Shown here piece by piece: positions 2,706 to 9,851 of a stretch of DNA of 64,000 bases (within the stretch, counting starts at the first letter, position 1; the number at the start of each line of letters is the position of its first letter). The stretch covers positions 64,001 through 128,000 of the forward strand of contig CBDBHB010000006.1 in NCBI GenBank assembly GCA_965205505.1, in the 5' to 3' direction. Source of the stretch: Acidobacteriota bacterium. GTDB taxonomy: Bacteria > Acidobacteriota > UBA890 > WLXD01. The translations under genes were made by a program, and so were the position numbers. Below the pieces are notes generated by a model that saw nothing but the letters and a program-made list of their open reading frames with translations, was not told the DNA's origin and searched no databases.

Positions 2706-4229
<1,524 letters not shown>

Positions 4230-4407
4230 CCACATCGCGTCGTCGACCCACCGTCGACGGCAGACGCACATCACGCCTGTCCGACTTGAATGGGTCGTGT
4301 CGCGCTGCTGGTCGACTTCGCGCTGCTGCGGCGAAGCGACTGACAGCAGGGGACTTGCCGTTGCTGGACGATGCTGGAACGGTCTCTGTGGTCTCGCCAA
4401 CCCTGGA

Positions 4408-4424
4408 TTGGCATCAAACTTGCT
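4408..4424 (+). promoter_or_regulatory. Sigma-54 (-24/-12) promoter
   Basis: TTGGCATCAAACTTGCT: GG at 4410-4411 and GC at 4422-4423 with exact 10-nt spacing, ~180 bp after an EBP gene. Confidence 0.8.
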
Positions 4425-4434
4425 CTTGTAGAGT

Positions 4435-4562
4435 CGCGAGGCCGCCGGGCATCAGTCGGGTTGGCTCGCGGAACCGGGACAACGTCGGACGGAAGGGGAA
4501 ACAGGGGACCCTCGCTCTGAACCCGGTGAGCTAGCCCGGCAGGTGCCCGGCGGTCTTTCGCG
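4435..4562 (+). ncRNA. Candidate sigma-54-dependent rod-shaped small RNA
   Basis: Begins at predicted +1; nested stems 4439-4453/4542-4556, 4455-4467/4528-4540, 4473-4478/4522-4527 with five G-U pairs; no credible ORF; next gene is convergent. Confidence 0.65.
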
Positions 4563-4577
4563 CGAGGCTGCGGCCTG

Positions 4578-5267
4578 CTAGAGCTGGAACGACAGGAATC
4601 CGGCGATGCGGCGCATCGAGAAGAGGCGGTTGAGTAGGCTGCCGCTGCCACCGGTAATCGCCTTCATCTCCCGATAGTCGGCGCGGAAAGACACTTTCTC
4701 CGACAGATAAAAGCGAAAGCCGAGCCCGAAGGCTATCAACGGGCCCGTCTCCAGCTCGTTCATCGGCTCGATACCGAAGGTAGGCAGCGCCGCGGCCACC
4801 GGATCCCGCAACCGCTCCGTAGCATGAAAGATGCCGCCGCCCACCGCCAGGTACGGTGCTAGCTTGCTGGACCGCCCGCCGGACTGAAAGATGAAGCTGA
4901 GCAGTCCGTGGTTGATCTGGCCGTTCGGGCCGCGCGTGACACCGCCCTCGAGCTCGATGCCCACGTTGCCGGTCGAGCGCTTGAAGTAACTGGCAGCAAT
5001 GCCTGCCTGGCCTGAAGCCGAGCCACGCATCTGCACTGCTCCGATGAGGCTGATCTGGAACCCACCGACCGGGTCCGAAGGCGGTCGGTCGTCGCGCCGG
5101 ATGGTCTGCTGAAGGTCAAACAGACCGACCGTTCCGGCGCCGCGGCGTTCGTCTTCCTCATCTGCCGTCGGTGGAATCAAGCTTCCTGCCGATGACGCGC
5201 TGGCTGCGTCCGGCGCAAGCGCCAGCCCAGTCAACAGCAAAGCGGCGGGAAGCGAGCGCAGGTGCAC
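4578..5267 (-). CDS. Outer-membrane beta-barrel domain protein
   Basis: Signal peptide, amphipathic strands (PYLAVGGG, FGLGFRFY, FRADYR), aromatic-rich C-terminal strand. Confidence 0.7.
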   Translation of the reverse strand: MHLRSLPAALLLTGLALAPDAASASSAGSLIPPTADEEDERRGAGTVGLFDLQQTIRRDDRPPSDPVGGFQISLIGAVQMRGSASGQAGIAASYFKRSTGNVGIELEGGVTRGPNGQINHGLLSFIFQSGGRSSKLAPYLAVGGGIFHATERLRDPVAAALPTFGIEPMNELETGPLIAFGLGFRFYLSEKVSFRADYREMKAITGGSGSLLNRLFSMRRIAGFLSFQL

Positions 5268-5276
5268 GCGATGCTC

Positions 5277-6203
5277 CTAGAAGAGGACGGCTGTGCCAGA
5301 GGGAAAGGAGTCGGTCCGATTGATCAACGGGACGATCGCTCTCGGGGTCACGCCCGCCGGAACGAGTCCCTCCAGAACGATCAGCTGCGATCGAGGAAAA
5401 AAATCAATCGACCGGCCCTCGAGACTCACGGTTATGCGAGCCCCGGCAAGACTTGCGGGGAACGTGAGGCCATCGGGCGCGTTGACCAGCAGGTCATCCC
5501 CCGGACGTTCTGGGGCCGGGGCTTCGTCGGCGCAGAATCGACACCTGTCGTCGGCTTGGTCCCCGCGGTCGAACCGGCCGACACTGAGGGAGCTGCCGTT
5601 GATGTCGACGAACGTCTCATAGATCAGCGCGGCGGTAGTATCGGGCAGGCTTAGTGAAGGATCGCCGTTGCTATCGACCATCCAGAATCCAGAGGTTTCG
5701 TTGGTGTTCGGACCGTCCGTCGGAGTGAAGATCTGTACGCTACCGCCGGCGCTCGTGATCGCCGACGAGATGGGCACTGTGAGCGTCGCCACCCCTTCGA
5801 TGAAGGTACCGGAGAGAATCTGCATACCGCTTGGCGCCGTCGGCTCATCGGTATCTGACTCGATCGTGACCAGCATCCTGAGCGTCTCGCGCAAAGGGAA
5901 CTGGTCGGAGCGAAACTCACCGAGCGGGACGCCCGCGGTGTCGATCATCTGGCCGCCGGCGCCGATATTGAATGCGCCGAGGCTTTGCGACTCGTTGCGC
6001 TCGAGCAGCGCCCACAGGTAGTAGATGCCATCCGTCCCCGGGTCCAGCGGCTGCAGCAAGGTCACGTCCACCAATATCGCCTGGACCTCTCCGACAGCTC
6101 GGGGCAACGCTGTTATCTCCGTCGGCGTCTGGTTGCACGCCGGCAGCAGCAGAGCGCAGGCCACGATCAGGAGGCGGAGAGCCCCGATTCGGTTCCAGGA
6201 CAT
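5277..6203 (-). CDS. Hypothetical lipoprotein
   Basis: Signal peptide with lipobox LPAC; abuts upstream gene stop. Confidence 0.7.
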   Translation of the reverse strand: MSWNRIGALRLLIVACALLLPACNQTPTEITALPRAVGEVQAILVDVTLLQPLDPGTDGIYYLWALLERNESQSLGAFNIGAGGQMIDTAGVPLGEFRSDQFPLRETLRMLVTIESDTDEPTAPSGMQILSGTFIEGVATLTVPISSAITSAGGSVQIFTPTDGPNTNETSGFWMVDSNGDPSLSLPDTTAALIYETFVDINGSSLSVGRFDRGDQADDRCRFCADEAPAPERPGDDLLVNAPDGLTFPASLAGARITVSLEGRSIDFFPRSQLIVLEGLVPAGVTPRAIVPLINRTDSFPSGTAVLF

Positions 6204-7608: not shown

Positions 7609-8286
7609 CTATCCTGAGACACGTTCCACGAACACGCCGCCCGCGGCCGCTAGACCCAGATGGCAGATGCGGCTGCCGACTCGTACCGTCACGGGATGGT
7701 CCTGTGATCCACGATCGACGATCTCCAGCTTCACATCGGGTCGCACACCGAGCTCACCAAGGTAACGCAGCAGGTCGGCGTCGCCGTCGATTACCCGGCG
7801 CACGATCGCCGTCTCTCCGATCTCCAGCTCGGACAATGTCGGATACTCGGGCTCGTCCATCGATCCGTCGCTGGCCGGTATGGGTGCGCCGTGCGGATCA
7901 GTGCCCGGACTCTGCAGCAGACGATCGAGCGCCGCTACAAAACGCTGGCTTACTGCGTGCTCGAGGCGTTCGGCTTCAGCGTGAACCTCGTCCCACGGGT
8001 ACTCGAGGTACTCGCTCAGAAAGCGCTCAATCAGCCGATGGCGCCGGATCATCCGTCGAGCCAGGCGTTCGCCGTCGGCGGTCAGAATCACGCCTCGATA
8101 GGGTTCGTGCTCGACCAAAGCGAGTGTTGCAAGCCGGCGCATCATGTTGCTGACCGACGCGGGCCGCACTTCCAGCCGTTCGGCGATCGCCGACGTCTGT
8201 ACCGGAGCTGTGCCGCTGCCGAGCTCGAAGATCGCCTTGATGTAGTCCTCGATTGACTCGGACGAAATCAACGCGTCCTCGCTCAC
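7609..8286 (-). CDS. DtxR/MntR family metal-dependent repressor with FeoA domain
   Basis: EDYIKAI, RRHRLIERFL, HAEAERLEH, DPHGAPIP. Confidence 0.93.
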   Translation of the reverse strand: MSEDALISSESIEDYIKAIFELGSGTAPVQTSAIAERLEVRPASVSNMMRRLATLALVEHEPYRGVILTADGERLARRMIRRHRLIERFLSEYLEYPWDEVHAEAERLEHAVSQRFVAALDRLLQSPGTDPHGAPIPASDGSMDEPEYPTLSELEIGETAIVRRVIDGDADLLRYLGELGVRPDVKLEIVDRGSQDHPVTVRVGSRICHLGLAAAGGVFVERVSG

Positions 8287-9851
8287 GAGTCACTGGGGTC
8301 GGTGAACACGGCAGGCTGATCATCCCATCCGCCAACCGCGAAGTCTTCACCGATGGCTTTTACCGTCACGGTATTCGTTGTCCCTGGGCCACCCACCGGG
8401 AATCCGGCGGTGATCACCACGAGATCACCCTCGTGCAGCAGACCCTCGTCACGGGCGGTCGCCTCGGCCTCGGCCAGCATCGCTTCGTGGGTTGGAACCT
8501 CGCGTCCCGGCAACGGGATCACGCCCCAGGTCAGCGTCAGCCTTCCCACCGTTGCCGGGTGCGTGCTGATCGCGAGGATTGGCTGACGCGGTCGGAACTC
8601 TGCCATCTTGATAGCTGTGCTCCCGGTGCGTGTCGGAACCAGAATCGCGGCTGGGTCCAGGAGGCGAGCGACCAGCGCCGCCGCTGCAGCGACCACGTCG
8701 GGTACCGAGCCGCGACGCTCCGCCGATAGTTTCCGGTCGACCTCCGGCCCCTCCATGTCGCGCTCGGTGGCCAGGCAGATACGGCGCATGATGTTCACTG
8801 CACGCACCGGGTTGGAGCCGATCGCGGTCTCCTCCGACAGCATCACGGCGTCGGTTCCGTCGTACAGCGCGTTCGCCACATCCGTGGCTTCGGCACGCGT
8901 TGGTCGCGTGGCCGTTACCATCGATCGCAGCATCTGAGTAGCGGTGATTACCGGCTTTCCGGCGGCGTTTGCGCTCCGGATGATTTGTTTCTGTGCTCGC
9001 GGTACCTCCTCCAGAGGTATCTCTACCGCCAGATCGCCGCGCGCCACGAGCAATCCGTCAGCCTGTTCGATGATCCCCGGCAGATTCTGCATCGCCTCGT
9101 GCTTTTCGATCTTGGCGATCACCGACAAATTACCACCGTGTTCGAGGATCACGCTGCGTGCCAGCTCGACGTCGGCGCTGCTGCGCACGAACGACAGCGC
9201 TATGAAGTCGACCCCGACCGCCACGCCGAGTGCGATCGCGTCTCGGTCAGCGGGTGTGATGGTGGGCAAAGAAAGGGTCCTGGTGGGAAAGTTCATGCCC
9301 TTGTGGCTGGAGACGGGCCCACCGGAGTTCACGCGGCAGTTCACTGCCGTGCTATCGGTCGATTCCACCTCGAGCTCGACATCGCCGTCGCCGATGAATA
9401 TCCAGTCGCCGGGCTCCATCTCGTCCGGCAGCCGAGCGTAGCTGACCGAGATCTCGCCGGCGTTTCCCGGCGCGTCGCCGGGTATGAGTCGCACAACGGA
9501 GCCACTATCCAGAAAGATGGGTCCGTCGGGGATGTCGCCGATCCGGAGCTTGGGACCCGGAATATCCAGCATGATGCCGATGGGGCGCTTCCGTTCGGCG
9601 GAGATCGCACGGATGAGCTTGACAGTACGGCGATGCCATTCCGGCTCTCCGTGGGAGAAATTCAACCGCGCCACGTCCATGCCAGCGTCGATGAGAGCTT
9701 CGAGCTGGTCTCGCTCCTGCGTTGCCGGGCCGATCGTGCAGACGATCTTGGTCCGGCGCGTTTGCCCGACGCTTCGCTTCACCACGTTCGCTCCAGTACC
9801 GACTCGCCGTGCGGGCGAGGTGCCAACATCGATCCCTACGGTAGGCTCCAC
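8283..9851 (-). CDS. pyk: Pyruvate kinase
   Basis: RRTKIVCTIGPA, ARLNFSHG, AKIE, VARGDL, ATQML, DAVMLS; true start may be slightly downstream. Confidence 0.96.
   Translation of the reverse strand: MEPTVGIDVGTSPARRVGTGANVVKRSVGQTRRTKIVCTIGPATQERDQLEALIDAGMDVARLNFSHGEPEWHRRTVKLIRAISAERKRPIGIMLDIPGPKLRIGDIPDGPIFLDSGSVVRLIPGDAPGNAGEISVSYARLPDEMEPGDWIFIGDGDVELEVESTDSTAVNCRVNSGGPVSSHKGMNFPTRTLSLPTITPADRDAIALGVAVGVDFIALSFVRSSADVELARSVILEHGGNLSVIAKIEKHEAMQNLPGIIEQADGLLVARGDLAVEIPLEEVPRAQKQIIRSANAAGKPVITATQMLRSMVTATRPTRAEATDVANALYDGTDAVMLSEETAIGSNPVRAVNIMRRICLATERDMEGPEVDRKLSAERRGSVPDVVAAAAALVARLLDPAAILVPTRTGSTAIKMAEFRPRQPILAISTHPATVGRLTLTWGVIPLPGREVPTHEAMLAEAEATARDEGLLHEGDLVVITAGFPVGGPGTTNTVTVKAIGEDFAVGGWDDQPAVFTDPSDS

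Follow-up and report, generated by a model that had tools for sequence, protein, structure and literature searches.

What does a sigma-54 promoter transcribe when it points at a region with no evident protein gene? The question is raised by positions 4230 to 4562 of a 64,000-nucleotide (nt) stretch of DNA from an Acidobacteriota bacterium (assembly GCA_965205505.1, contig CBDBHB010000006.1, positions 64,001 to 128,000), the whole of which is referred to here as the window. At this locus the gene for an enhancer-binding protein with a GAF sensor domain is followed by a -24/-12 promoter and by a sequence predicted to fold into one long RNA rod. Comparative analysis suggests that this is very probably a real, sigma-54-transcribed RNA gene. 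As judged from related genomes, the gene is conserved, present in a single copy and restricted to the class of the window, and its most plausible activator is the enhancer-binding protein encoded beside it. The coordinates of all features are collected in Table 1.

Sigma-54 Promoter and Predicted Small RNA

The consensus promoter, which an original prediction made from the sequence of the window had located at 4408-4424, is present at 4409-4424, ~180 nt downstream of the activator stop codon. It is the sole match to TGGCAYNNNNNTTGCW (TGGCAY-N5-TTGCW) in the 64-kb window, where 0.05 matches are expected and at least one occurs in 4 of 100 shuffles; the 5.98-Mb genome from which the window derives (G000) holds 10 such matches, the RNA promoter among them. 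The TGGCA and TTGC elements form invariant columns in a MAFFT alignment of 19 sequences. When genomes, public records and metagenome loci are combined into 35 distinct homologues, the exact motif is found in 34, at 19-27 nt (in one, 38 nt) ahead of the start of the covariance model, and the 35th carries TGGCACCGTCCTTGCG, with TTGCG as its second element, so that TGGCAY-N5-TTGC is kept in 35/35. RpoN is encoded in the same genome (RpoN DNA-binding domain, 1.7e-60), and no sigma-70-like promoter was found in 4100-4800.

Downstream of the promoter, the rod has stems of 15 and 13 bp separated by an A-A mismatch; a GCGGA bulge and a 6-bp stem follow, with weaker pairing towards the apex. Its outer helix is continuous over 29 bp and includes five G-U pairs, as counted from alignment columns, and its loops are small and confined to the 5' strand. 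The plus strand of 4430-4575 folds with -88.4 kcal/mol (z -5.19) and that of 4435-4560 with -80 kcal/mol (z -6.23), values that 0/200 shuffles equal in either case, whereas the minus strand reaches only -63.1 kcal/mol (z -1.04; 31/200 shuffles equal). The same asymmetry is seen in the covariance-model scores, which are 126.9 bits on the plus strand vs 36.7 bits on the minus strand at this locus, and 94-131 bits in the sense vs 29-55 bits in the reverse direction overall. Six homologues folded separately each give the same rod (z -4.4 to -7.5).

The RNA contains six GGA triplets, five of which are retained in the sister family, and two AGGGGA motifs at 4494-4499 and 4503-4508. In the apical fold the first GGGG pairs with CCC(C/U), represented here by CCCU, and the loop exposes AAACAGGGGA (...CAGGGGA) in all folds. 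Only one GGA is presented in a hairpin loop, this single apical one, and the remaining triplets are either base-paired or sit in internal loops. In the ensemble, no pairing is seen for the apical loop or for two of the internal loops. Two open reading frames (ORFs) that overlap the RNA, of 82 amino acids on the plus strand and 126 on the minus strand, have no Pfam match, and coding is excluded because homologue subtypes differ by apical insertions or deletions (indels) of +4, +5 and +6 nt and share no conserved start codon. A small peptide encoded by an ORF at 4371-4520 (TGA at 4518-4520) was considered and rejected, since this frame starts upstream of the promoter and the homologues carry 4-6-nt apical indels. 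Much of this had been described in the original prediction, which noted the lack of a credible protein gene, a convergent next gene, a rod of ~128 nt (here 126 nt) with these stems, mismatch and bulge, five G-U pairs that work on the plus strand only, and the GGA and AGGGGA motifs; each of these observations held when re-examined.

Table 1. Features at and around the predicted RNA gene, in window coordinates
Feature	Position	Strand	Remarks
TPR-repeat protein gene, 488 amino acids	1230-2696	+	Pfam TPR_16/TPR_2; ends 10 nt before activator gene
Enhancer-binding protein gene, 507 amino acids	2706-4229	+	GAF sensor, sigma-54 AAA+ domain, Fis-type helix-turn-helix
Predicted upstream activator site GACCACATCGCGTC	4228-4241		14-bp palindrome-type GWC-N2-YAT-N3-GWC; 181 nt before -24; overlaps activator stop codon
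Direct repeats TCGCGCTGCTG	4300-4310, 4318-4328	+	Present, not conserved
Sigma-54 promoter TGGCATCAAACTTGCT	4409-4424	+	TGGCAT-N5-TTGCT; GG at -24, GC at -12; predicted start ~4435
Predicted small RNA, ~126 nt, single unbranched rod	4435-4560	+	Covariance-model match 4434-4560; both ends predicted
Outer helix, 5' arm	4439-4467	+	Inverted repeat I1; 14/24 pairs change both sides, 94.4% of cells paired
Conserved 5'-arm motif CGGGYTGGCTCGC	4457-4469	+	Columns invariant or nearly so
Apical core GTCGGACGGAAGGGGAAACAGGGGACCCTCGCTC, 34 nt, nearly invariant	4484-4517	+	19 genomes and 35 distinct sequences
Outer helix, 3' arm	4528-4556	+	Followed by TCTTTC (4555-4560), the predicted 3' end
Outer-membrane beta-barrel-like protein gene, 229 amino acids	4578-5267	-	Weak TIGR04565; atlas neighbours carry OMP_b-brl

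Conservation, Covariation and Distribution

Relatives were sampled as 26 genomes of the window's class, 12 of which have a completeness of 90% or more and a contamination of 5% or less; f1 denotes the window's own family, f2 its sister family, and g1 and g3 two genera. BLASTN finds one full-length copy of the RNA in its own genome, the 18 other matches being no longer than 42 nt with E of at least 0.49, and homologues in 9/10 genomes of f1 and 9/15 of f2. A covariance model (R1) built from the alignment of the RNA from 19 genomes matches exactly one locus in 19/26 class genomes, including 12/12 of those at least 90% complete, any other match being to the same locus on the reverse strand; the seven class genomes with no match are 55-88% complete. 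In a sample of 151 genomes from the phylum the model matches 13 class members and 0/138 genomes of other Acidobacteriota. Among 185,579 species genomes, a scan for the pattern yielded 13 records (12 metagenome-assembled genomes of Acidobacteria/Acidobacteriota and one "uncultured bacterium"), and a scan of metagenomes returned 22 loci, 21 of which match the model. The remaining one, L101, has no model match and was set aside as a chance pattern match. A dispersed element of the repetitive extragenic palindromic (REP) type was likewise rejected, as there is one full-length copy in the genome and one locus per relative.

Covariation supports the rod. In the 19-genome MAFFT alignment, 93.3% of cells form standard pairs, a share that falls to 30-49% once the 3' partners are shifted by 1-3 columns. 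Two-sided changes are seen in 15 pairs, of which 13 belong to the 24 pairs of the outer helix; 0/500 column shuffles reach these values. In the 35-sequence alignment, whose fitting to the model favours the structure, 94.5% of cells are paired and changes on both sides affect 18 pairs, including 14/24 in the outer helix and 3/5 in P2. The two parts of the molecule evolve differently, in that the apical core is near-invariant on both stem strands while the outer helix covaries freely. The near-invariance of this 34-nt core also contrasts with the flanking activator protein, which is only 63-69% identical across the class.

No known family accounts for the RNA, in agreement with the original prediction, which had not recognised one. 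Searches of Rfam assigned no family to the RNA, either in a cmscan of 3900-4900 against all 4227 families at E up to 10, which placed nothing in 4400-4575, or in a scan of the whole window at gathering thresholds; among the families without a match is Pxr, for which Rfam contains a model. The RNA of the signal recognition particle (SRP) was also rejected as an identity, since RF00169 has no match at the locus and the SRP RNA of this genome was placed at G000:C7:153505-153604 (73.3 bits).

The Linked, Probable Activator

The protein encoded upstream has the domains expected of a sigma-54 activator, with Pfam matches to Sigma54_activat (1.3e-61), GAF_2 (8.8e-14) and HTH_8 (8.2e-10), and its translation contains a Walker A motif (GESGVGKE) and a GSFTGA loop. 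In NCBIfam it falls under the cut-off of every named equivalog, the best being NifA at 320 bits (cut-off 529). An orthologue with 63-93% identity adjoins the RNA in 32/32 loci examined, which comprise the 19 genomes and 13 records that partly repeat them. This comparative evidence supports the coupling, as first proposed, of a GAF-type enhancer-binding protein to a sigma-54 non-coding RNA gene. The two also share their distribution: activator orthologues of at least 65% identity are found in 12/12 good class genomes and only within the class, while the best matches outside it reach 40-41% identity, in 4/138 genomes.

A rearrangement in genus g3 adds to this association. In the three genomes of this genus (L013, L014 and L015 of G009, G006 and G010; also L033, L036 and L040), the activator gene is inverted at its own position but continues to adjoin the RNA promoter; it alone is inverted relative to the TPR gene, the RNA and the gene for the outer-membrane protein. 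Transcription of the activator and of the small RNA (sRNA) would therefore diverge from a shared region of ~210 nt, which contains the palindrome described below. That the gene has been inverted yet remains adjacent argues for a functional coupling beyond inherited synteny. Taken from its conserved position, the adjacent enhancer-binding protein is likely to be the activator of the RNA.

Predicted Upstream Activator Sites and a Probable Second Target Promoter

A 14-bp palindrome (for example GTCGATATATCGAC) is found as 25 sites in 15/19 upstream regions, between -143 and -252 from the -24 element, compared with a genome-wide density of 0.015 per 260 nt; upstream regions in f2 often have two such sites, spaced by 43-46 bp. 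It is present in 28/33 distinct homologues with a full upstream region, and in 13/14 such sequences known from metagenomes only, which were not used to define the motif. The direct repeats TCGCGCTGCTG, first noted as lying at enhancer distance, are present as described, but an enhancer role is not upheld, as they are already degraded in G004, the closest relative, and missing elsewhere; the conserved palindrome is instead the likely enhancer. With the promoter, RpoN, a linked activator and predicted upstream sites all identified at the sequence level, the RNA would belong among the sRNAs that depend on sigma-54 and an enhancer-binding protein.

The palindrome also points to a second target. 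The genome contains 184 promoter-like sites with at most one mismatch, of which three are preceded by the palindrome at -90 to -290. One is the sRNA promoter, another is a poor site within C4, and the third is a promoter on contig C9 ahead of a gene for a secreted GWxTD-domain protein (G000:C9:128670-129700, L117/L118; TIGR04514, E 5e-24). There, the sigma-54 promoter TGGCACGGACCCTGCA lies 145 nt ahead of the start codon and is preceded by two copies of the palindrome, leaving a 5' untranslated region (UTR) of ~130 nt that is conserved within genus g1. Among the 12 best orthologous GWxTD loci, the sigma-54 promoter is found in 12/12 and the palindrome in 9/12. Since palindromes and promoter are kept at this gene, the activator probably drives at least two promoters, those of the sRNA and the GWxTD gene.

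Proposed Mode of Action and Rival Explanations

A mechanism can be proposed in which a signal is sensed by the GAF domain and the activator, bound at the 14-bp palindromes 150-250 bp upstream, opens the sigma-54 promoter, giving a transcript that would start near 4435 and end past the outer helix near 4560. Since the long outer helix drifts by compensatory change, its role may be mainly to stabilise and terminate the transcript. The working part would be the apical domain, whose two strands are both invariant and which a protein would recognise as a structured and sequence-specific element. Action in trans is likely. The reading in its entirety, that of a class-wide, activator-driven sigma-54 RNA acting through its G-rich apical domain, most probably by binding a protein, is put forward tentatively.

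Protein binding, as decoy or by sequestration, is the preferred mode, if a tentative one, since the apical stem is frozen on both strands and no signal came from the target scans; antisense pairing is its strongest rival and a somewhat less probable one. Most trans-encoded bacterial sRNAs act through base pairing, and a chaperone-independent antisense RNA could use either the apical loop AAACAGGGGA, which is unpaired together with the two internal loops, or the opened C/U-rich strand CCCUCGCUC to pair with mRNAs, for instance at GAGGG-type ribosome-binding sites. CCCUCGCUC is indeed complementary to purine-rich Shine-Dalgarno-like sequences, with single examples at start codons such as G000:C8:909464. 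However, across 5541 predicted translation-start regions the core does not rise above shuffled cores, either in duplex energy (minimum -57.9 kcal/mol vs -59 to -71 for four shuffles) or in ungapped complementarity (17 sites scoring at least 28 vs 12-37 for five shuffles; maximum 37 vs 34-38), and searches for exact complements returned scattered matches only. Against the GWxTD 5' UTR in 10 genomes, the best runs of the sRNA are not above those in shuffled UTRs (fraction as good 0.09-0.95), and the match GGACAACGU/GYGUUGUCC is limited to genus g1. A seed on one strand would moreover constrain that strand only, whereas both are invariant, and neither Hfq nor ProQ, which might aid pairing, was found in the 26 class genomes. 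As for the partner of a protein-binding RNA, the specific version in which the RNA is a decoy, presenting an invariant G-rich hairpin to an undescribed RNA-binding regulator or its AGGGGA pair as Shine-Dalgarno mimics to the 30S subunit, is possible but rather doubtful. A 91-amino-acid RRM_1 protein at G000:C7:346718-346927, the only small RRM protein of the genome, is a possible candidate for such a partner and serves as a lead only.

The other explanations are far less probable. A 6S-like RNA that binds the RNA polymerase holoenzyme and replaces 6S in this class is very unlikely, although every near-complete class genome has the RNA, as a single-copy rod, and RF00013 matches 0/26 class genomes at E up to 0.1. 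That absence means little, because the RF00013 search is insensitive and matches only 5/14 control genomes; furthermore, the RNA is ~126 nt long (6S RNAs measure ~180 nt, and the RF00013 model has 187 positions), has small loops on the 5' strand in place of a large two-sided central bubble, shows no RF00013 match in its region at E up to 10, and is preceded by a regulated sigma-54 promoter with no sigma-70-like promoter found. It is slightly less probable again that the element acts in cis, as the leader or attenuator of a downstream gene or as antisense to the convergent outer-membrane protein mRNA at its 3' end. A co-oriented gene does follow within ~70-250 nt of the RNA in f2, and the distance from the RNA to the end of the convergent gene in f1 is 18-319 nt. 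Yet the RNA is not a leader, since the downstream gene is convergent in f1, which has no co-oriented one, and differs between the loci examined in f2 (aldehyde dehydrogenase vs LpxA-like); the convergent arrangement is in turn lost in f2, so that no single cis target is conserved where the core is invariant.

The long GC-rich hairpin between convergent genes could also be a bare terminator or an intergenic palindromic repeat with no RNA function, but there is little chance of this given one locus per genome, an invariant sigma-54 promoter 19-38 nt upstream, a 34-nt apical sequence better kept than the activator protein, strand-asymmetric G-U pairs and model scores, and the persistence of the element where gene arrangement differs. 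Least probable of all is the sponge for CsrA- or Hfq-like factors that had originally been suggested, of the CsrB/RsmZ or CrcZ type. In its favour are the six GGA triplets, of which f2 keeps five, and the one AGGGGA exposed in the apical loop, but CsrA (PF02599), Hfq (PF17209) and ProQ (PF04352) were each found in 0/26 class genomes, 12 of which are at least 90% complete, by searches that match in control genomes, and for this reason a CsrA/Hfq sponge is not supported. In addition, a single GGA lies in a hairpin loop, and the RNA has neither repeated GGA hairpins nor A-rich Hfq motifs.

Several points weigh against the protein-binding RNA preferred here. All carriers are metagenome-assembled genomes, and transcription and both ends of the RNA are predicted from sequence only. 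The 3' end is an uncertain prediction: the helix is followed by TCTTTC here and by T-rich tails in most homologues, but some in f2 have no T-run, and a simple terminator scan found none because its loop limit was 3-8 nt. Binding of the activator to the palindrome is proposed from adjacency alone, and the first count of the palindrome was made in the same 19 sequences from which the motif was derived. Because the target scans are crude (own gene calls, ungapped or unrestricted duplex scoring), they do not dispose of antisense action, for which AAACAGGGGA, the exposed loop, could provide pairing seeds, as could the internal loops. Finally, CsrA, the known GGA-binding protein, is missing from the results for all 26 class genomes.

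If the decoy reading is correct, the locus would represent a new axis of sRNA-protein sequestration tied to an activator with GAF sensing, which seems to control a secreted GWxTD protein as well. The locus forms a cleanly defined class-wide module of sensor-activator, enhancer sites, sigma-54 promoter and structured RNA. Strong covariation and an invariant core in genomes where Hfq, CsrA and ProQ were not found make it an entry point to sRNA regulation that may operate without these proteins. The covariance model is new and can be used to annotate genomes of the class. None of the carriers is cultured, which limits the practical weight, and function would be approached first via metatranscriptomes or heterologous reconstitution.

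Neighbouring Genes and Other Observations

In its own genome the TPR gene is probably co-transcribed with the activator gene, and in the 12 loci that extend far enough, TPR homologues flank the activator gene on its far side; the TPR protein could be a partner or co-sensor of the activator. The outer-membrane protein gene at 4578-5267 is syntenic with the RNA in f1 and separated from it by other genes in f2, and is a neighbour outside the RNA unit. It belongs to a minus-strand pair (4578-6203), in which a gene for a 308-amino-acid protein precedes it and which is syntenic with the sRNA in both families. Language-model neighbours of the 308-amino-acid protein carry the anti-sigma RskA_C domain (13-43% of cluster members), which is a lead only. 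Further along, the minus-strand genes at 7609-8286 and 8283-9851, encoding a DtxR-family iron-dependent repressor with a C-terminal FeoA domain and adjoining pyruvate kinase, are ordinary neighbours.

Two kinds of repeated sequence were observed elsewhere in the genome. A short palindromic element, GGCCTGTTACAGGCC(ACTAG), recurs on G000:C9 near 129,750 and 1,656,990, in tandem at the latter, and may be REP-like. Identical stretches of at least ~90 nt are shared by G000:C6:11575 and C6:191538 and by C6:431016 and C7:3396, and may be a repeat or an assembly duplication.

Comparison with Known Systems

Literature searches, with subscription journals outside their coverage, turned up neither an account of this RNA nor one of sigma-54-dependent sRNAs in Acidobacteria, and no paper describing any Acidobacteriota sRNA. 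The kind of system is familiar from other bacteria. In Pseudomonas crcZ adjoins cbrB, and the pairs cbrB-CrcZ, luxO-Qrr and glrR-GlmY share this layout. Qrr (LuxO, Vibrio) and GlmY (GlrR, Enterobacteria) have sigma-54 promoters with dedicated input from an enhancer-binding protein, LuxO and GlrR being two-component response regulators; Qrr acts by pairing and needs Hfq, whereas GlmY acts by protein mimicry. Neither resembles the RNA described here in sequence or structure, as judged by the lack of an Rfam match.

Other comparisons concern the molecule itself. With CsrB, RsmY and RsmZ the RNA shares clustered GGA triplets, one of them in a hairpin loop, but it is a single rod rather than a series of many GGA hairpins, CsrA was not found in its class, and its promoter is of the sigma-54 type, unlike the GacA/UvrY-type promoter of those sRNAs. 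It resembles 6S RNA (RF00013) in being a single-copy rod found throughout a lineage, and differs in its shorter length, the lack of a central bubble, the lack of a model match and its regulated sigma-54 promoter. CrcZ is ~400 nt long with A-rich Hfq-binding motifs, whereas the RNA here has 126 nt, is G-rich and occurs in a class in which Hfq was found in 0/26 genomes. The likeness to CrcZ and CrcY with CbrB lies in the dependence of the sRNA on RpoN and an activator and in the role of CrcZ and CrcY as protein antagonists, which in Pseudomonas are directed at Hfq and Crc (PMC5113210).

The closest parallel is Pxr of Myxococcus xanthus, and the analogy with nla19-Pxr, drawn at the outset, proved apt. 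The Pxr gene lies directly downstream of nla19, a sigma-54-dependent activator gene, and apparently has its own sigma-54 promoter in an intergenic region of ~260 nt, giving a highly structured sRNA of ~108 nt that is limited to one lineage (PMC5568312; PMC5684412). The locus in the window has the same layout, with a structured, lineage-restricted sRNA behind a sigma-54 activator gene and a sigma-54 promoter of its own. Unlike Pxr, which is predicted as three stem-loops and whose linked activator is described as a response regulator (PMC5568312), the RNA here is one rod linked to a GAF-type activator. It also occurs in another phylum and has no similarity to Pxr in sequence or by covariance model. 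From its sequence features, then, the RNA is a new family inside a known kind of system, that of sigma-54 sRNAs linked to an enhancer-binding protein as in nla19-Pxr.

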